Part shown: positions 1 to 6,359 of the stretch, one piece after another | Layout: each line of letters starts with the position of its first letter | Numbering within the stretch: position 1 is the first letter of the stretch | IMG/VR virus record: IMGVR_UViG_2695420514_000020 | Coordinates: 1-6,359 of that record | Source: a virus | Lineage: Duplodnaviria > Heunggongvirae > Uroviricota > Caudoviricetes | Direction: 5' to 3' (one strand) | DNA: 6,359 nucleotides | The notes under the pieces: model-generated | What the model was told of the DNA's origin: nothing | The model's database searches: none | The model's input: the letters and a program-made list of their open reading frames with translations, nothing else | Translations under genes and position numbers: made by a program

Positions 1-225
1 ATGAATCAGAAATACATTCCATCATGCTTGAGAAATCTGCCAAAGCAGAAAGCAAAGCCCCGCAAGCAAGCCATAAAGGACGCTAAGGCAGAGGTTATTG
101 ATCAAGCAATACAATTGCTCAGGGAGGAGTTAAGAAGTGGCAAGCTCGAAGGAATGATGATGCCCTATCAGCGCGGATATCTATCGGCGATTAGTAAGTT
201 GGAAGTATTGAAGAGTGAATTATGA
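1..225 (+). CDS. hypothetical small basic protein (74 aa)
   Basis: ATG at 1, TGA at 223-225. Lys/Arg-rich N-terminal half (KQKAKPRKQAIKDAKAE). The window starts exactly at the start codon, so the upstream RBS or promoter cannot be seen. No family recognised. Confidence 0.45.
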   Translation: MNQKYIPSCLRNLPKQKAKPRKQAIKDAKAEVIDQAIQLLREELRSGKLEGMMMPYQRGYLSAISKLEVLKSEL

Positions 226-280
226 ACTATCTGGAATTTCCGGATGGTTCATTGTTTTGGCAGCAAGCATAGAGGTGAAT

Positions 281-577
281 ATGGAATTCAAAGGTACTAA
301 AGGTAAGTGGGAAATAATGATGGATGGCGATGAGATTAAAATCATCCAGGCAGACTCACTTGAAAATGGCGCAGGCTGGCGTTCGTATATTGCAATCTGT
401 GAGGAAGTTCAACGCATTGAAGATGCCAATCTAATAGCGGCAGCACCTGACCTTCTCGAAGCACTTCAGTTATTACTTAAGCAATCAAAAAATAGAACAA
501 CGACAATATATCCAGAATGGTATGGAGCTGTTAATAAAGGTTTTGCAGCAATCATCAAGGCTCTGGGAGGTGAGTGA
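281..577 (+). CDS. hypothetical phage early protein (98 aa), possibly Ead/Ea22-related
   Basis: ATG at 281 preceded by AGAGG (271-275) with a 5-nt spacer. The track ORF extends in frame to GTG 215, which has no comparable RBS. Stop TGA 575-577 overlaps the next ATG (TGATG). Contains the motif NLIAAAPDLLEAL, which I recall from Ead/Ea22-like lambdoid early proteins (memory only, unverified). Confidence 0.55.
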   Translation: MEFKGTKGKWEIMMDGDEIKIIQADSLENGAGWRSYIAICEEVQRIEDANLIAAAPDLLEALQLLLKQSKNRTTTIYPEWYGAVNKGFAAIIKALGGE

Positions 578-672
578 TGTGCGAGTTTTACGAAGCAGAT
601 ATCAAACGCCCAGAAATGGCAAGTGATGCGACATACGTGATTATTTCGCGGCAAAGGCTATGCAAGCAATGA
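577..672 (+). CDS. small ORF (31 aa); possible 5' part of a frameshifted small gene
   Basis: ATG 577 with a strong SD GGAGG (566-570) and 6-nt spacer, overlapping the upstream stop. The ORF ends at TGA 670-672, while a second frame stays open from 627 to 776. Confidence 0.3.
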   Translation: MCEFYEADIKRPEMASDATYVIISRQRLCKQ

Positions 673-776
673 TTAGCAATCCATCGATTATCGATAATGA
701 TTCTGATGGAGCTGTTAATTATGCAGCAAGCGCTGCATATAAGTTTGCAGACGCAATGCTCAAAGCTCGCGAATAA
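660..776 (+). CDS. small ORF (38 aa); possible 3' part of the same frameshifted gene
   Basis: The frame is open from 627 and the first ATG is at 660, with no good SD (AAGG only 2 nt upstream). Stop TAA 774-776. The translation CDIRDYFAAKAMQAMISNPSIIDNDSDGAVNYAASAAYKFADAMLKARE looks protein-like from before the ATG, which suggests it continues the upstream ORF after a frameshift. Confidence 0.3.
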   Translation: MQAMISNPSIIDNDSDGAVNYAASAAYKFADAMLKARE

Positions 777-779
777 GCA

Positions 780-811
780 CTGTGTATTCATTCCAACGAG
801 TGAATACACGG
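780..811 (+). other. inverted repeat / stem-loop without a U-tract
   Basis: GTGTATTCA (782-790) pairs with TGAATACAC (801-809); the stem extends with C780-G811 and a T781/G810 wobble; 10-nt loop. No T-run follows, so this is not a canonical terminator. It sits in the 185-bp non-coding gap. Confidence 0.4.
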
Positions 812-871
812 AGCAATGTCGCTCGTAACTAAACAGGAGCCGACTTGTTCTGATTATTGGAAATCTTCTTT

Positions 872-896
872 GCCCTCCAGTGTGAGGGCTTTTTTA
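872..896 (+). terminator. rho-independent terminator
   Basis: GC-rich 6-bp stem GCCCTC (872-877) / GAGGGC (884-889), 6-nt loop, followed directly by TTTTTT (890-895). The orientation works only on the + strand. It lies inside the track ORF 857-1132, arguing that ORF is over-extended. Confidence 0.7.
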
Positions 897-961
897 TATG
901 CATACCAATAACGCTTCACTTGAGGCGTTTTCGTTATGCAATCAAACAGAAGGAGCATCCT

Positions 962-1132
962 ATGCAACAGTTCGCTATTGCAGGGGCGGCATCGGTTCGC
1001 CCTTTCAACCCGATTTTATCGGTACAGCATTCACGAAAAAATATTTTAACCGGAGCAGACTTTAAACAACCAAGAATGAAAAGTTTGCTCGAAAAGCTTT
1101 GGGATATTTTGAAACAACAAGGCCGTCCATGA
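962..1132 (+). CDS. CIII-like small regulatory protein (putative FtsH inhibitor, lysogeny control), 56 aa
   Basis: ATG 962 preceded by AGGAG (951-955) with a 6-nt spacer. Product MQQFAIAGAASVRPFNPILSVQHSRKNILTGADFKQPRMKSLLEKLWDILKQQGRP. The N-terminal FAIAG and C-terminal SLLEK...LWDILKQQG resemble lambda CIII (MQYAIAG... ESLLER... KRLIDILNQPG) as I recall it. The position upstream of the recombinase matches the lambda order cIII-kil-gam-bet. Confidence 0.5.
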   Translation: MQQFAIAGAASVRPFNPILSVQHSRKNILTGADFKQPRMKSLLEKLWDILKQQGRP

Positions 1133-1236
1133 GTTTTACAGATAACTGGTCAGACGAAGAATTCATTCGTCAGATGAACAAAATGCTCAATCAGCACAAA
1201 GAACAGGAGAAAGATGATGATTCTGACTCTGAATGA
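1129..1236 (+). CDS. hypothetical small acidic protein (35 aa)
   Basis: ATG 1129 overlaps the CIII-like stop (ATGA). Weak SD AAGG (1119-1122). Product MSFTDNWSDEEFIRQMNKMLNQHKEQEKDDDSDSE; stop TGA 1234-1236. It is below the track length cutoff and overlaps the next gene start by 23 nt. It occupies the kil-like position. Confidence 0.35.
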   Translation: MSFTDNWSDEEFIRQMNKMLNQHKEQEKDDDSDSE

Positions 1237-1525
1237 TAAGCGTGAAATATCGCAAATAATCGCAAGTTTTACTGATGAAGATTACGAACGAATCAACAGT
1301 GAAGTTGATCGTCTCTGCAAACGTTGCGACCCCATAAGCGAAATGCTTCGCTCATATAAACCAGATGAACACACTAAGGACGCTATCGACTGGCTGGAAG
1401 ATGATGACTGTAACTATCAGGAAAAAGCCGCTGAATGGTTCTGGGATGCAATAACCGAAAGAGTTAAGGCTGAATATGCCTTCGCAATATTCAAACGCAG
1501 ACATATTTATGGAGAAGCTGCATGA
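1214..1525 (+). CDS. hypothetical protein (103 aa) immediately upstream of recT
   Basis: Tandem ATGs at 1214 and 1217 follow AGGAGA (1205-1210). Stop TGA 1523-1525 overlaps the recT ATG (ATGA). No family recognised. It occupies the gam-like position. Confidence 0.6.
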   Translation: MMILTLNDKREISQIIASFTDEDYERINSEVDRLCKRCDPISEMLRSYKPDEHTKDAIDWLEDDDCNYQEKAAEWFWDAITERVKAEYAFAIFKRRHIYGEAA

Positions 1526-2424
1526 GCAATATCGTTGAATTCGTTAAACAGCAAGAGCAGTTATTCTGCGGAGCATTGACTGAACAGACGGTGACATGGG
1601 CTAAGGAAAGCCAGTTTGCAATTCAGTATTTCCAGAAAAATGATTACCTGGCTAAAACAGCACTGGCAAATCCAACCAGCGCACAGAACGCCATCATCAA
1701 TGTTGCGGCGATCGGCATCACCTTAAACCCGGCCAGCAAACTGGCTTATCTGGTTCCTCGCGACGGCATGGTGTGCCTTGATATCAGTTACATGGGATTA
1801 CTTCATCTTGCGCAATCGACAGGATCAATTAAGTGGGGGCAATGCAAACTGGTGTACTCAAACGACACCTATGAATCAAATGGCCTTGATTCAGCACCAA
1901 CCCACAAATACAACGCATTTGGTGAGCGAGGCTCTATTGTTGGAGGTTATTGCACGGTTAAAACAGCAGATGGTGACTACCTGACTGAAGAAATGAGTCT
2001 GGCAGAAATTAAAGCTGTGGAAGCAACGAGCAAGGCAAAGAATGGACCGTGGAAAACATTCTGGGAAGAGATGGCGCGTAAAACAATAGTTAAACGCGCC
2101 AGCAAATACTGGCCTAAAGCCCAGCGACTGGATAATGCCATTCACCTTCTTAACGAAGATGAAGGTATGCATCAGGAACCAGTTATGCCGCACAAATCAG
2201 AGGAAGATATCCGCGAAGATGAACGGAAACGCCAGCAGGAAATAATGGATAAAGCACAACTTCTTTGCGATGAAATGGCTCAGGCAGAAAACATGGACGA
2301 TTTGAAGCGATATTTTGCAGAAGCATATCGCCTGACATCTGGAATGAAATTGCAGCAGAACGTACAAGCCATTTACATAGAATGCAAAGCGAAACTGGAG
2401 GTTGCCAGTGAGCAAACTGTATGA
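1522..2424 (+). CDS. recT: RecT-family single-strand annealing recombinase (300 aa)
   Basis: The segment NGPWKTFWEEMARKTIVKRASKYWP closely matches the Rac RecT segment NGPWVTHWEEMAKKTAIRRLFKYLP (from memory). Length and surrounding residues are consistent. SD GGAGAAG (1511-1517). Confidence 0.85.
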   Translation: MSNIVEFVKQQEQLFCGALTEQTVTWAKESQFAIQYFQKNDYLAKTALANPTSAQNAIINVAAIGITLNPASKLAYLVPRDGMVCLDISYMGLLHLAQSTGSIKWGQCKLVYSNDTYESNGLDSAPTHKYNAFGERGSIVGGYCTVKTADGDYLTEEMSLAEIKAVEATSKAKNGPWKTFWEEMARKTIVKRASKYWPKAQRLDNAIHLLNEDEGMHQEPVMPHKSEEDIREDERKRQQEIMDKAQLLCDEMAQAENMDDLKRYFAEAYRLTSGMKLQQNVQAIYIECKAKLEVASEQTV

Positions 2425-2890
2425 AATTGCCAATGAATACGCAAAATTGATGGATTCAGATTTAGAACCAGAGATGATTGCTGACACAATAGAAGGCATG
2501 GAAGGAGAATTTACCGATAAAATAGAGCAACTTCTCGCCATTATTAAAAATGAATCTGGTTATGCTGAACGCCTCAAGGAAGAGGCAAAGTCACTAAATG
2601 AGCGAGCCGTAGTAATTCAAAATAAGATTGACAGCATTATGGCGTATATAGCGTCATCGCTTGAAATGGTTGGCAAGAAAAAGATTCGAGCAGGTATTCA
2701 CCAGGTAACAATCCGCAAACCGTCAGAAACTGTAGAAATCATCGACTCAAGCGCCCTTCCTCCTGAATACGTTGAGTTCGAAACGACAATTAAAGCCGAC
2801 AAACTGGCAATCAAACACCAACTAAAAGCAGGAATAAATATCCCCGGTGCTCAACTCAAAGTTGGGAAACCTTCACTTCTTATCAAATAA
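2408..2890 (+). CDS. Siphovirus Gp157-like protein (about 160 aa), common RecT companion
   Basis: GTG 2408 is 6 nt after GGAGG (2397-2401); the track starts at in-frame TTG 2402. Overlaps the recT 3' end by 17 nt. N-terminal KLYEIANEYAKLMDSD...DTIEGMEGEF followed by a coiled-coil region fits my memory of the Gp157 family (PF05565), which typically sits beside RecT or Erf. Confidence 0.6.
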   Translation: MSKLYEIANEYAKLMDSDLEPEMIADTIEGMEGEFTDKIEQLLAIIKNESGYAERLKEEAKSLNERAVVIQNKIDSIMAYIASSLEMVGKKKIRAGIHQVTIRKPSETVEIIDSSALPPEYVEFETTIKADKLAIKHQLKAGINIPGAQLKVGKPSLLIK

Positions 2891-2901
2891 CGGTATCGCC
2901 T

Positions 2902-3216
2902 ATGAAAAAGACTCCATGGGAGAAATGGGAAGTCGATTTCTTGCGCGAAGTAGCGGCGACAATGCCAGTTGAAGTTATCGCTGAAAAACTGGAAAGGACT
3001 GAAAAAGCAGTTATGGCGAAAGCAACAAGGATTGGCGCTGACATTGTTAGCCGACTTCGTGGAAGACGCTGGACAAGAGCCGAAGTATCACTTTTCGGTA
3101 AGTTCTCCGCAGAAGAAATAGCAATTGCAACCTGCCGCTCAATTTATTCAGTAAGAGCTATGCGATACAAGCTAAAAAAACTCGATGAAGAAAGAGCAGG
3201 CATACGAATAAATTAA
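2902..3216 (+). CDS. putative DNA-binding protein with two tandem Myb/SANT-like HTH repeats (104 aa)
   Basis: ATG 2902, 11 nt after the upstream stop, with no strong SD. Two internal repeats share a W-x(2-3)-E-x(2)-L ... EEIA ... R(T/S)-x(3)-(A)VR pattern: [12 protein letters not shown]...[21 protein letters not shown] and [37 protein letters not shown]. Confidence 0.55.
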
Positions 3217-3232
3217 CAAAGAGGAATTTACC

Positions 3233-3397
3233 ATGAGAGGACTTGCATACAATCCCGGCATTCTTCCGGCAGAAATGATTATTCGCCAACGCGTAAAGCC
3301 AATGCCATCGAGAGAGGAATTGCTTAAGAGAAATTCTTTTCCATCAGTGAATCAAAACAAATATCTGAATGCGATGTTGCGGAGTGGGAAGAAATGA
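3233..3397 (+). CDS. hypothetical small protein (54 aa)
   Basis: ATG 3233 preceded by AAGAGGA (3219-3225) with a 7-nt spacer. Stop TGA 3395-3397 overlaps the next ATG (ATGA). Below the track cutoff. Confidence 0.45.
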
Positions 3398-3906
3398 AAC
3401 AAATGACACTAATTGAGATGGATGGTTTTCTGAAAGGTAAATGCATCCCAAGCGATTTAAAGGTTAACGAAACAAACGCTGAATATCTTGTCCGTAAGTT
3501 CGGTGAACTTGAATCAAAACTGGAAACGGCGTTGCGGGAGTGTCGTTCTGCTGGAATCACGATTGATAACCTTGAGGCTAAATGCACGAAGATGGCTGCT
3601 GAAAATACATCGCTTAAGCAATCTGAGAAGGAATTTAATGACTTTTGTCGTGAGGAGTTTAGCGAATGGGAAGATGATGTTACTGAAACTCCAGCCACCG
3701 ATGCTTTTCTGTCTGAAGTGCGGGCGCAGGGGGTGGATGCTGCTATAGAAGCTGCAAAAAATCTGGTGGCCCAAGAATATGAGTATAAGGATTTCAAAGC
3801 GGCGCAGAGTGATTGCTGTATGCACCCTGGTTCAGACCTGGTAGGGAAGGTTGAAATGACTGAGTGGTTAGTTGACTTTGCTGCCCAGCTTCGCAAAGGA
3901 GAGTGA
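3394..3906 (+). CDS. hypothetical coiled-coil protein (170 aa), possibly Ead/Ea22-like
   Basis: Long + strand ORF with a heptad-like charged helical middle ([44 protein letters not shown]). GGAG 3381-3384 upstream. The antisense ORFs across it are Ser-rich low-complexity shadows. Confidence 0.65.
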
Positions 3907-3907
3907 T

Positions 3908-4465
3908 ATGACCACTATAACCGATAAGAAACAGTATCCAGGCGAGCAATATCTTAATGAGCTGATCACCAACATAGAGTTTGCTGCAAGAGCACCAGTT
4001 GAAGTCGTGAGAGCGATGGCTGCAGAGCTACAGAAGCGGCGCGAAGCTGATAGTGCAGAACCTGTAAGCCAAACTTACAAGTTGCCAGTTAATACACCTT
4101 GCCAAGATGCGCCAGCCCATATCTGGCTGCAAACGGCTGGAGTATGGCCAGAAGATGGCGAGTTAAGCGAATTAACGTGGTGCAGCCACAATCAGCACCA
4201 TGATGACACGCTATATGTTCGAGCTGACCTTGTGAATGGCAACTCTCCGGGAACTCCGGATGGTTGGATAAGCTGTAGTGAGCGAATGCCAGAGGACGGT
4301 CAGCACGTAATTATTTTATGTGATGGCGCATTCGTTCTTTATGCGCAATATCGAGACGGTGAGTTTTTCGATATTGTCCGCAATGGTGATGAATTTTTTG
4401 AAACACAGAGCCGCAATGTAACACACTGGATGCCGCTACCAGAACCGCCGCAGGAGGCAAAATGA
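3908..4465 (+). CDS. DUF551-like domain phage protein (185 aa)
   Basis: ATG 3908 preceded by AAGGAG (3896-3901) with a 6-nt spacer; the track start at 3872 lies inside the upstream gene. The C-terminus DGWISCSERMPEDGQHVIIL...VTHWMPLPEPP matches the DUF551 signature as I recall it. Confidence 0.7.
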   Translation: MTTITDKKQYPGEQYLNELITNIEFAARAPVEVVRAMAAELQKRREADSAEPVSQTYKLPVNTPCQDAPAHIWLQTAGVWPEDGELSELTWCSHNQHHDDTLYVRADLVNGNSPGTPDGWISCSERMPEDGQHVIILCDGAFVLYAQYRDGEFFDIVRNGDEFFETQSRNVTHWMPLPEPPQEAK

Positions 4466-4659
4466 TGGATAAATGCCATGGCATTTTAGGTAAGTTGTTC
4501 GGGCACTCATTCAAGCCGGTGATCGCCAAGAGCGCCGTAAAATTCCCAACACGAATTGAAGGAACGCCGTCATTTGTCAGTAGAACGCTGGATGCCCATC
4601 GGGATGAAGATTATCGTGGCCTTTATTGCAAGCGTTGCGGAAAGGAGGTGAAGCCGTGA
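4462..4659 (+). CDS. small putative zinc-binding protein (65 aa)
   Basis: ATGATG at 4462 follows AGGAGG (4452-4457) and overlaps the upstream stop. N-terminal KCHG and C-terminal YCKRCGKE give a Cys/His...CxxC arrangement. Confidence 0.6.
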   Translation: MMDKCHGILGKLFGHSFKPVIAKSAVKFPTRIEGTPSFVSRTLDAHRDEDYRGLYCKRCGKEVKP

Positions 4660-4772
4660 TTACAGTGCTAGCATGGCATTTAAGTGAAAGCATTTATGGC
4701 TGGATGCTGGCAATTACAGCAATTCAGGATTTGGCAATCACATCGTTTATTTTCAGCCTGTGCAGGAGGTGA
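4656..4772 (+). CDS. small hydrophobic peptide (38 aa), putative membrane micro-protein
   Basis: GTG 4656 is 7 nt after AGGAGG (4643-4648) and overlaps the upstream stop (GTGA). Product MITVLAWHLSESIYGWMLAITAIQDLAITSFIFSLCRR; stop TGA 4770-4772. Not in the track (short). The track ORF 4684-5055 covers the same DNA in another frame. Confidence 0.4.
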   Translation: MITVLAWHLSESIYGWMLAITAIQDLAITSFIFSLCRR

Positions 4773-4776
4773 AGTG

Positions 4777-5055
4777 ATGGACTCCTTCGCGAAATATACG
4801 ATTATTGACTGGATAGCATTCCTTCAGGTTTTGCTCATCTGGTTTTATATGGCTTACAGGAGTGGGCAGTGGATTGTCAGTGTAGCCTGTAGCAAGGGAT
4901 GGCGTTGGTGGAACAGAAAGAATAAAAAAGCACTGGCATTGGATTCGTTTTACGAAGCATTCAATCTTAACAGTCTTCAGCCTGGTTCTGTCGTTGTAGT
5001 CACCACTCAAAGTGGCATGACCATTCAGATTCATAAACCAAAAGAGGAAAAATGA
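4777..5055 (+). CDS. small single-pass membrane protein (92 aa)
   Basis: ATG 4777 is 7 nt after AGGAGG (4764-4769). N-terminal hydrophobic segment YTIIDWIAFLQVLLIWFYMAY, then the basic Trp-rich stretch GWRWWNRKNKK. The track's upstream GTG 4684 start gives an implausible Cys/Trp-rich leader with no SD. Confidence 0.6.
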   Translation: MDSFAKYTIIDWIAFLQVLLIWFYMAYRSGQWIVSVACSKGWRWWNRKNKKALALDSFYEAFNLNSLQPGSVVVVTTQSGMTIQIHKPKEEK

Positions 5056-5141
5056 TGTGGCCTATATGTGTTAATTGCGGACGGATGTGCCTATCTGGAT
5101 GGTGCCGAAAGTGCGACAAATGCACGAAGCAAAGACAATAA
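5052..5141 (+). CDS. Cys-rich micropeptide (29 aa), zinc-ribbon-like
   Basis: ATGATG at 5052 overlaps the upstream stop (ATGA). SD AAGAGGA (5042-5048). Product MMWPICVNCGRMCLSGWCRKCDKCTKQRQ has 6 Cys including CxxC pairs. Stop TAA 5139-5141. Confidence 0.4.
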   Translation: MMWPICVNCGRMCLSGWCRKCDKCTKQRQ

Positions 5142-5174
5142 CAATCCTCGCACTCGCGGGGATTTCTTTTATCT

Positions 5175-5200
5175 GAACTCGCTACGGCGGGTTTTGTTTT
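5175..5200 (+). terminator. possible weak intrinsic terminator / attenuator
   Basis: Stem GAACTCGC (5175-5182) pairs with GCGGGTTT (5187-5194), including G-U wobbles, around the tetraloop TACG. It is followed by TTTTGTTTT. Marginal stability. Confidence 0.3.
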
Positions 5201-5212
5201 ATGGAGATGATT

Positions 5213-5512
5213 ATGACTTGTTCAACATTCAACCCTTTAACGTTACAGAAATACCATCCAGACCCTGAAGATTTATGCTCACTGTGTGGCGGAAATCATG
5301 GTAAAGCCGCCATGATCGAATGTAAGGACAAAATCCACATATGCCTTAATTGCGTTGATGTCCTCGTTGATATCAAAAATGAAAGAGAAGATAAAAAGCG
5401 TAGCGAGGCTATTCGCGCCTTAGATTCATGGATGCGAGATGGGTATAGTGCTGCGCAAATTTATGACTTAGCCATTTCAAAAGGCGAAATACCAGGTGTG
5501 CGAATCGAATAA
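5213..5512 (+). CDS. zinc-ribbon-containing hypothetical protein (99 aa)
   Basis: ATG 5213 is 5 nt after GGAGA (5203-5207); in-frame ATGs at 5201 and 5207 are alternatives. CSLCGG ... HICLNC gives a CxxC-x18-CxxC pattern. Confidence 0.65.
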   Translation: MTCSTFNPLTLQKYHPDPEDLCSLCGGNHGKAAMIECKDKIHICLNCVDVLVDIKNEREDKKRSEAIRALDSWMRDGYSAAQIYDLAISKGEIPGVRIE

Positions 5513-5547
5513 GAAGCGCACTCAAGCATCTTTTGGGGAAATCACAA

Positions 5548-5715
5548 ATGCACTTCCTAGTCACAGGTGAATGGAATGGAGAGCCATTCAACAGAGTTAT
5601 CGAATCGGAGAACATCAACGACTGCTACGACCACTGGATGATATGGGCGCAGATAGCACATGCAGAAGTAACCAATATTCAAATTGAAGAACTGAAAGAA
5701 CACCAAGCCGCCTGA
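5548..5715 (+). CDS. hypothetical small protein (55 aa)
   Basis: ATG 5548 is 7 nt after GGGGAA (5535-5540); the track starts at in-frame TTG 5533. Stop TGA 5713-5715. Confidence 0.5.
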   Translation: MHFLVTGEWNGEPFNRVIESENINDCYDHWMIWAQIAHAEVTNIQIEELKEHQAA

Positions 5716-5728
5716 TTGCGGTTTTTTA
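5705..5728 (+). terminator. weak terminator-like hairpin with T-tract
   Basis: Stem CCGC (5708-5711) / GCGG (5718-5721), extendable by A-U and G-U pairs, with loop CTGATT. It is followed by TTTTTT (5722-5727) and overlaps the stop of the 55-aa gene. Confidence 0.35.
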
Positions 5729-5741
5729 TTGGAGACAAGAA

Positions 5742-6086
5742 ATGTCAGATTTGGCTATGAAGGTTTTGAAATGGCAATCGACTGGCGATGTTGGCATCAG
5801 TAGCGCAACTCTTGCCTCAATCGCATGTGGACTGAAAAAGAATATCTATGGTCATAGCTTCGGTGCTCCACATGACGCAGCAGACTTTCGGCGATGCGTT
5901 GCACTTGTTGAGCAGATTCCAGAAATCAGAGATTCATTCGACAAGGTTGCAAAGCGCGTTCCGGCATTCAAAGGAATCCTCAACGAATGGGATTCCCTCG
6001 TTGCTCTGTTGAAGTCTGAAATGAAGATACACGGAAACAAAGCACCAGAGACTTACAGAAGAATTAGCGAGTTACGCAAGGACTAA
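5742..6086 (+). CDS. hypothetical protein (114 aa)
   Basis: ATG 5742 is 6 nt after GGAGA (5731-5735). Clean single long ORF with stop TAA 6084-6086. No family recognised. Confidence 0.7.
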   Translation: MSDLAMKVLKWQSTGDVGISSATLASIACGLKKNIYGHSFGAPHDAADFRRCVALVEQIPEIRDSFDKVAKRVPAFKGILNEWDSLVALLKSEMKIHGNKAPETYRRISELRKD

Positions 6087-6126
6087 CCACAGCCTCACAC
6101 TCGATGAGGCCTGTACATATCTGATA

Positions 6127-6153
6127 GAGCCGCTATATGGCGGTTTCTTTTTG
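6127..6153 (+). terminator. rho-independent terminator, preceded by a second hairpin at 6092-6110
   Basis: Stem CCGC (6130-6133) / GCGG (6140-6143), extendable with wobble pairs, loop ATAT, followed by TTTCTTTTT. Just upstream is a 6-bp hairpin GCCTCA (6092-6097) / TGAGGC (6105-6110). Confidence 0.5.
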
Positions 6154-6167
6154 CCTGGAGAATTAAG

Positions 6168-6359
6168 ATGAGCGATACTAGCCTGATTCCTGAGAAAGAA
6201 GTGATGAACAAGCTCGGTGTTTCATCACGTCAGACAATCTGGAACTATACCAAACGGCACGGATTTCCGAAGCCAGTCAGAACCCACCCCAAATCATACC
6301 TTCGTGAAGCTGTTGAAGGGTGGATTCTTAACGGTGGCGTTAATCAGAAATGCTCCTGA
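6168..6359 (+). CDS. AlpA/Xis-family HTH DNA-binding protein (63 aa); putative excisionase or integrase activator
   Basis: ATG 6168 is 7 nt after GGAG (6157-6160). Pattern IPEKEVMNKLGVSSRQTIWNYTKRHGFPKPV...EAVEGWI matches the AlpA/Xis-family arrangement (…EV…G.SR.TIY…G.FPKP…W) as I recall it. The window ends at its stop codon. Confidence 0.65.
   Translation: MSDTSLIPEKEVMNKLGVSSRQTIWNYTKRHGFPKPVRTHPKSYLREAVEGWILNGGVNQKCS

Follow-up and report, generated by a model that had tools for sequence, protein, structure and literature searches.

In the stretch of phage DNA analysed here (hereafter the window: 6,359 nucleotides [nt], positions 1 to 6,359 of IMG/VR virus record IMGVR_UViG_2695420514_000020), the gene at 5213–5512 encodes a protein of 99 amino acids (aa) that carries a predicted zinc-binding domain homologous to the zinc-binding domain (ZBD) at the N-terminus of ClpX, a host unfoldase. 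A preliminary description of this DNA had called the domain a zinc ribbon. The four-Cys site was borne out by our analysis, while the classical ribbon was not: with high confidence, we assign the domain to the ClpX-type zinc-binding (ZB) domains, with a predicted treble-clef fold. Proteins 97% identical in aa sequence are 933W L0063/ST933Wp03, VT2-Sakai H0073, and Sf6 gp19, which places the gene in 933W and VT2-Sakai, Shiga toxin (Stx) phages of medical importance, and in Sf6, a model phage, where its product has carried the database label "hypothetical" since sequencing. The domain family itself is already known, and some of its distant members are captured by Pfam; what is new is that members of the 933W L0063/Sf6 gp19 family are phage proteins in which a ClpX-type ZB domain stands by itself and is linked to a C-terminal module shared with other proteins. 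Tentatively, we propose from this homology that the 99-aa protein may be a free mimic of the ClpX N-domain, which would either compete for clients of the ZBD or dock on ClpX, altering ClpXP proteolysis. The features of the gene are as follows.

5203–5206, + strand: Shine-Dalgarno sequence GGAG, read from the sequence, 6 nt before the ATG at 5213
5213–5512, + strand: target gene for the 99-aa protein (phrog_3680), from the open reading frame (ORF) list; ATG at 5213, TAA at 5510–5512
5252–5275, + strand: lead-in motif Y-x-P-D-P-E-D-L, residues 14–21, invariant or nearly so in the close-family alignment (A2)
5267–5386, + strand: ClpX-type C4 ZB domain, residues ~19–58, from Pfam, PDB, NCBIfam, hhalign, and AlphaFold2 (AF2)
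5276–5278, 5285–5287, 5342–5344, and 5351–5353, + strand: codons of the predicted Zn ligands C22, C25, C44, and C47
5387–5509, + strand: charged helical linker and C-terminal module, residues 59–99, ending GEIPGVRIE, from AF2 and alignments

ClpX-type domain and domain architecture

Analysis of the Cys motif upheld the CxxC-x18-CxxC pattern of the preliminary description, which reads exactly C22-x2-C25-x18-C44-x2-C47. The motif exceeds chance expectation: the form CxxC-x8-40-CxxC arose in 0.9% of 200,000 shuffles of the same protein, and among the 42 stop-to-stop ORFs with a length of 60 aa or more in the six frames of the window, that of the target was the only one to contain it. In a 29-sequence alignment, with identity down to 27%, the four Cys are the only invariant columns, and residues C3, H15, H29, C37, and H42 are all variable.

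Searches with the single sequence pointed to ClpX. The top Pfam match was PF06689 (zf-C4_ClpX; E 0.014), and the 99-aa protein alone fails the gathering threshold of this family (15.7 versus 27 bits). The best PDB matches were the ClpX ZBD structures 2ds7 and 1ovx (E 0.05–0.18), and the alignment with E. coli K-12 ClpX in BLASTP was gapless, with 12 identities in 36 positions (33%) and identical CxxC-x18-CxxC spacing. The NCBIfam ClpX equivalogs matched over their N-terminal positions 5–51, scoring 16–17 bits against cut-offs of ~360. Since only these positions of the ~415 in the ClpX models are matched and the AAA+ ATPase module is absent from the 99 aa, the protein is not a ClpX.

The A2 profile, built from close relatives only, returned five matches in PDB, all of them ClpX (E 0.02–0.5). 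When searched against 1.84 billion representative proteins, it found just 28 proteins at E <1e-3. This search retrieved ~100-aa proteins of the same architecture (P0040–P0052), with P0043, P0047, P0048, and P0051 recovered at E 3e-9 to 1.5e-5, and the weak end of its match list was made up of multi-repeat proteins with ClpX-type ZB domains. The same four ~100-aa relatives pass the PF06689 threshold (P0047, 43.3 bits; P0048, 31.7 bits; P0051, 29.5 bits; P0043, 28.4 bits), and P0048 has the C-terminal tail AIAEGKIPGVRVE in common with the 99-aa protein. With the widened family profile (A3), seven different ClpX sequences were matched in PDB (E 2.8e-7 to 6e-3), and no other match was significant. 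It is by way of the intermediate ~100-aa relatives that the link to ClpX becomes significant. Profile comparison and structure prediction had been proposed as a check in the preliminary description. The profile comparison led to ClpX, with hhalign against residues 14–53 of E. coli K-12 ClpX giving a probability of 96.7% (E 3.3e-10), and the predicted structure can be superposed on a ClpX ZBD. No confident homology to a characterised housekeeping phage protein was found in these searches. A Lar/Ral-type or DksA/TraR-type zinc protein was also considered and rejected, with no such Pfam match.

The AF2 model, calculated from the 29-sequence alignment, has a mean predicted local distance difference test (pLDDT) score of 86.3. 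It contains the Cys knuckle, a beta-hairpin (residues 34–36 and 42–44), and a helix beginning at residue 45, directly behind C44. The helices at residues 45–75 and 80–88 have pLDDT values above 90, in agreement with the charged helical C-terminal half that had been read from the sequence. Residues ~1–17 are of low confidence and lack regular secondary structure (block pLDDT means of 49 and 72), with values below 50 for residues 1–3 only; this part is taken to be a disordered N-terminus that leads into the YxPDPEDL motif. The model superposes on the ClpX ZBD 2ds5_A at 2.2 Å, with a template modelling score (TM) of 0.68; fold searches with the model brought no added significance, the domain being so small. 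An earlier AF2 run on 24 close homologues, in which the zinc-finger region was poor (pLDDT ~54, modelled as helices), was superseded.

Comparison of the 99-aa protein with the E. coli ClpX ZBD revealed identical spacing of the Cys and, as far as the AF2 model shows, a knuckle, beta-hairpin, and helix in the same order, in addition to the homology detectable in sequence. The residues F16 and I46, which line the client pocket of ClpX, align with L24 and I54, and both positions are hydrophobic across the family (F/L and I/M/L, respectively). Unlike ClpX, the 99-aa protein is free-standing and phage-encoded, lacks the AAA+ module and the GP turn, and has its own lead-in, charged helix, and C-terminal module. 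The YxPDPEDL lead-in is a family signature that ClpX does not have, and it is kept as PDP in distant members.

Residues 12–62 are almost invariant among the Escherichia, Klebsiella, and Enterobacter copies, residues ~66–88 vary in sequence and length, and the tail is conserved again (I-Y-D-x-I-x-x-G-x-I-P-x-h-R-I-D/E). In a second subfamily, the C-terminal end is LYDAGYRK. In the family of the 99-aa protein, the C-terminal ~45 aa (EAI, a variable part, and GxIPGVRhE) match the ends of proteins in phrog_7798, phrog_1376, and phrog_3483; the N-terminal domains of these proteins are unrelated, and their genes too are located near xis. One of these is gp34 of Erwinia phage phiEt88 (209 aa, phrog_7798; L013, 1030–1659), encoded two genes upstream of xis, in which an unrelated N-terminus precedes the tail AAGEIPGVRLE. 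Because the C-terminal module recurs on phrog_7798-type proteins, the 99-aa protein is regarded as a two-module construct, and the module may serve in oligomerisation or in binding a second partner. Ea22-like proteins were considered as the source of this module and rejected.

In PHROGs, the 99-aa protein matches phrog_3680 at E 2.7e-68. An in-frame ATG upstream, at 5201, would give 103 aa and is the start annotated by RefSeq in 933W. We favour the start at 5213 because of the spacing of the GGAG, because the leader TTTTATGGAGATGAT of the target also precedes the phrog_676 ATG in prophages without the insert, and because the equivalent Met is the start in most homologues. The gene at 5213–5512 is real and conserved, and belongs to the accessory genes found in lambdoid, Stx, and P22-like Enterobacterales prophages. 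A non-functional or decaying ORF, carried along as cargo by mosaic recombination, would agree with the patchy distribution of the gene and with the chimeric or truncated copies P0035, P0036, and P0039; such decay is extremely unlikely given the strong constraint at the protein level (residues 12–62 nearly invariant across genera and the four Cys invariant down to 27% identity) and an ORF that is intact in more than 50 phage records.

Candidate action on ClpXP and competing readings

The only known jobs of the ClpX ZBD are dimerisation and the docking of adaptors and substrates, and the degradation of lambda O requires it (PMC7804408, PMC7226468). Trigger factor, SspB, and RssB bind in a hydrophobic side pocket formed by F16 and I46, and this pocket overlaps the lambda O site (PMC7804408, PMC7226468). 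On the proposal of a free N-domain mimic, which we rank first among the readings although with less than even confidence, the early-left operon would be read through its terminators during infection or induction, so that the 99-aa protein is made. The protein would fold around Zn, probably dimerising as ClpX ZBDs do, and would present a hydrophobic pocket resembling that of ClpX, in which L24 and I54 replace F16 and I46. The free mimic could then compete for ZBD-dependent clients such as SspB, RssB, trigger factor, and O-type replication initiators; alternatively, it could pair with a ClpX ZBD. In either case, the substrate choice of ClpXP would shift in favour of the phage, for example through stabilisation of the phage initiator, of labile antitoxins, or of sigma-S. 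Near-invariance of residues 12–62 next to a variable C-terminal half is what contact between the ZB domain and a conserved host component would predict.

The blocking of host proteases by phages, as a strategy against toxin-antitoxin systems, has precedents in T7 gp4.5 and T4 PinA, which act on Lon, and in lambda RexB, which acts on ClpP-dependent degradation of lambda O and antitoxins (PMC10286901). The outcome proposed for the 99-aa protein is similar, in that these are small phage proteins that shield phage or antitoxin proteins; they are unrelated to it in sequence and structure, and none of them mimics a protease domain. In our searches, we came upon no earlier case of a virus that controls an AAA+ protease by imitating its recognition domain. 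In addition, searches of a literature library for L0063 of 933W, zinc fingers of the ClpX type, phage-encoded inhibitors, mimics, or decoys of ClpX, and zinc fingers of the exo-xis region returned nothing on the target gene and no mention of a phage-encoded ClpX-ZBD-like protein.

The preliminary description had also suggested that the 99-aa protein could bind and inhibit a host factor, as one of three small proteins that might form an anti-host or anti-defence set. The ClpX ZBD homology gives the first part a concrete form, and neither the three-gene set nor evidence for anti-defence was sustained: PADLOC gave no match, and the literature search yielded no experimental report. In its broader form, the idea that a free paralogue of the substrate-selection domain of ClpX acts as a decoy, anti-adaptor, or docking adaptor that reprograms ClpXP in Stx, lambdoid, and P22-like phages is somewhat doubtful. 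Reprogrammed ClpXP would spare the initiator, antitoxins, or sigma-S, or host defence proteins would be steered into the protease. ClpXP controls the stability of lambda-type O proteins, sigma-S levels, the SOS response, antitoxin turnover, and the alleviation of Type I restriction. The homology to the ClpX N-domain turns an ORFan into a specific hypothesis that can be tested by standard ClpXP degradation assays. If the hypothesis is true, domain mimicry of a protease substrate selector joins the known phage manipulations of host proteolysis; if not, the family would nonetheless illustrate cleanly how a ClpX-type ZB domain has been recruited to a different partner.

Several points weigh against an action on ClpXP. 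The mechanism that would link the 99-aa protein to ClpX or its clients is extrapolated from homology. The ClpX ZBDs are held as dimers, and their local concentration is high, so that invasion by a free domain may be unfavourable. A decoy would have to be made in sufficient amounts, yet the gene sits behind two terminator-like hairpins; the gene is also cargo that can be dispensed with, as only 311 of 5426 E. coli genomes have it. Moreover, the target subfamily has diverged from ClpX, with its sub-threshold Pfam score of 15.7 bits, its own YxPDPEDL lead-in, and the loss of the ClpX "GP" turn, and it may have drifted to another partner. Domains of this type occur elsewhere, both as accessory domains of cyanobacterial sigma factors with no known link to ClpX (PMC11119718) and in tandem multi-repeat proteins likewise without a known ClpX link.

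The divergence of the subfamily and the occurrence of such domains elsewhere favour a different reading, in which the ClpX-type ZB fold is reused simply as a small zinc scaffold, probably a dimer, for binding another protein of the host or phage, with ClpXP uninvolved. The Bacillus subtilis protein CsfB (Gin; PDB 5N7Y) illustrates how a free ZBD-like protein can act: it is a small, stand-alone treble-clef zinc dimer whose fold is most like the ClpX N-domain, and it works as an anti-sigma factor by binding and inhibiting another protein (PMC5890618). CsfB is unlike the 99-aa protein in being a host protein of a different size without the C-terminal module, and its own authors doubted a relationship to ClpX (PMC5890618). 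CsfB was not among the PDB matches of the sequence or of the two profiles, and the resemblance is one of fold class only. The sharing of the C-terminal module with unrelated phage proteins also suggests a separate interaction network. Unlike CsfB, however, the family of the 99-aa protein is truly homologous to ClpX ZBDs in sequence and retains both hydrophobic residues of the pocket, and none of the searches indicated an alternative partner. We consider such reuse of the fold, the main rival reading, to be on the unlikely side.

The architecture of the protein also bears on whether it might be a phage-encoded ClpXP adaptor, whose ZB domain would pair with or sit beside the ClpX N-domain and whose C-terminal module would deliver a host protein, for example one involved in restriction or defence, for destruction. 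ClpX ZBDs are known to dimerise via their helices and hairpins (PMC5890618), and a conserved ZB "handle" followed by a variable C-terminal half fits a docking-plus-specificity design. As for possible cargo, HsdR of Type I restriction enzymes is already degraded by ClpXP, and phage-directed degradation of restriction enzymes has been listed as conceivable and not yet observed (PMC12707154); a Lar-like gene neighbours the target in Sf6. Such an adaptor is nevertheless improbable: heterodimerisation would be conjectural, the conserved part of the C-terminal module is a short tail instead of a variable recognition surface, and the neighbouring genes differ between phages.

Genomic setting, insertion junction, and distribution

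The window corresponds to the early-left arm of a prophage of the lambdoid type, with all genes on the + strand. The features other than the target gene are listed below; the hairpins were located by a terminator scan.

1522–2424, + strand: RecT
2402–2890, + strand: Sipho_Gp157
3233–3397, + strand: DUF2737
3394–3906, + strand: 170-aa ORF, Ea22-like by eye, no Pfam match
3872–4465, + strand: DUF551/EaA-like protein
4462–4659, + strand: 65-aa protein
4684–5055, + strand: DUF4752
5052–5141, + strand: 29-aa Cys-rich ORF
5143–5164, + strand: first terminator-like hairpin, 9-bp stem and T-run
5175–5194, + strand: second terminator-like hairpin, 8-bp stem and T-run
5548–5715, + strand: phrog_676 gene, 55 aa, ATG at 5548 (phrog_676 match, E 5.6e-37)
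5705–5724, + strand: terminator-like hairpin closing the two-gene unit of the target and phrog_676
5742–6086, + strand: phrog_1229 gene
6127–6146, + strand: terminator-like hairpin after phrog_1229
from 6168, + strand: AlpA/Xis-like gene

The true start of phrog_676 is the ATG at 5548, not the mechanically listed TTG at 5533. Comparison of the window with prophages that lack the target revealed a discrete insertion. In the insert-free prophages, the two hairpins and the same ribosome-binding site (RBS) are followed directly by phrog_676, xis, and int. In the window, the target sits exactly between that RBS and the phrog_676 ATG, and a second RBS-like copy TTTTGGGGAAATCACAAATG is regenerated between the two genes (5513–5547). 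As the insert-free prophages join the RBS to phrog_676, we regard the target as a discrete ~335-nt cargo insertion at a recombination junction. In 933W and Sf6, only the last ~50 nt of phrog_676 and the terminator follow the target before xis.

The ~80-nt element at 5135–5219, comprising the two hairpins and the RBS, was found in 2238 of 5426 complete E. coli genomes, versus 311 with the whole target gene. It appears to be a mosaic junction that recurs in lambdoid prophages and directly precedes the final gene or genes before xis/int. The hairpin at 5143–5164 is almost identical in the window, 933W, and Sf6 (with one substitution in Sf6), the RNA fold of 5135–5225 has a z value of −4.24, and the hairpin at 5705–5724 is conserved in 933W, Sf6, and an insert-free prophage. 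The region 4400–6359 contains four terminator-like sites versus 1.7 expected from shuffles, and no sigma-70-like promoter was found in it, versus 4.0 expected. An Rfam scan of the window at E up to 1 gave no match. The small gene units before xis were each observed to be bracketed by terminator-like hairpins.

In 933W and Sf6, xis is the next gene after the target; elsewhere, the target precedes AlpA/int by a few genes. In lambda, Ea8.5, a zinc-finger/homeodomain protein, is encoded just upstream of xis. The target resembles Ea8.5 in encoding a small putative zinc protein in the same slot at the distal end of the early-left operon, and differs from it in that its predicted zinc site is N-terminal and of the ClpX type. 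Membership in the Ea8.5 family was rejected, as searches of PDB with the sequence and two profiles (E up to 10) gave only ClpX beyond chance-level matches. This location, together with the lambda slot, which holds another zinc protein, Ea8.5, could suggest a nucleic-acid-binding regulator tied to excision and integration, acting with Xis/Int or on early-left transcripts. We consider such a role very unlikely. ZB domains of the ClpX type bind proteins, and DNA binding by them is not known; Pfam, PHROGs, and NCBIfam gave no match to a helix-turn-helix or other DNA-binding family, and the PDB matches were ClpX only. The adjacent xis/int types differ (lambda-type, TorI/HkaC-type, and AlpA-type), and therefore do not indicate a co-evolving partner, and many prophages with the same junction lack the target gene.

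Homologues of the 99-aa protein occur in Escherichia/Shigella phages, Klebsiella, Enterobacter, and a Hafnia phage, and the distant member P0047 is encoded in an enterobacterial prophage, a few small ORFs upstream of AlpA/int. Near-identical DNA to 4400–6359 (1960 nt) is present in many Stx-converting, lambdoid, and P22-like phages, with less than 80% of this query covered by any single record. This incomplete coverage is typical mosaicism. A genome scan with the A2 profile found only two loci. One of them, a copy 96% identical to the target gene, is on a 2.7-kb contig (L014, JAJXBQ010000315.1) binned to a "Segatella copri" metagenome-assembled genome; it is most likely mis-binned E. coli phage DNA and not an occurrence in Bacteroidota.

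Three variant copies were also noted. In P0039 (257 aa), an EaA-like N-terminus is fused to the target from residue ~32, with the first CxxC lost. In P0035, a different N-terminus is fused to the C-terminal module of the target, and P0036 appears frameshifted.

Neighbouring Cys-rich proteins

The preliminary description had counted three small Cys-based proteins within 1.1 kb, the 99-aa, 65-aa, and 29-aa products, and had taken them together as a cluster. Each of the three is real, and all lie inside 1051 bp. As a set, they did not hold together: the target is present in 933W and Sf6, whereas the 65-aa and 29-aa genes are missing there and ASCH/DUF551 or Lar-like genes are its neighbours instead, and the 29-aa and 65-aa families are found in other phages that lack the target. 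The three families thus assort independently of one another, and no evidence for a functional set emerged. A search of PADLOC-DB at E up to 0.1 gave no match for the target or its six neighbours.

In the 65-aa protein, which is weakly DUF1660-like, residues C5, H15, C56, and C59 are invariant across four phages. Its phage homologues, at 39–47% identity, are found in Enterobacter phiEap-2 (where the gene is unannotated), Citrobacter Tr1, and Klebsiella phi1_175008. The start of the 29-aa ORF overlaps the DUF4752 stop as ATGA, and its product contains seven Cys with the pattern C6xxC9x3C13x4C18xxC21xxC24. No family was matched by this ORF in Pfam, PHROGs, or NCBIfam. It is kept at 64–76% aa identity in unrelated phages (Escherichia C1, Salmonella KFS-SE2, and Citrobacter Tr1), where its homologues are mostly unannotated. 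Citrobacter Tr1 has homologues of both the 65-aa and the 29-aa proteins.

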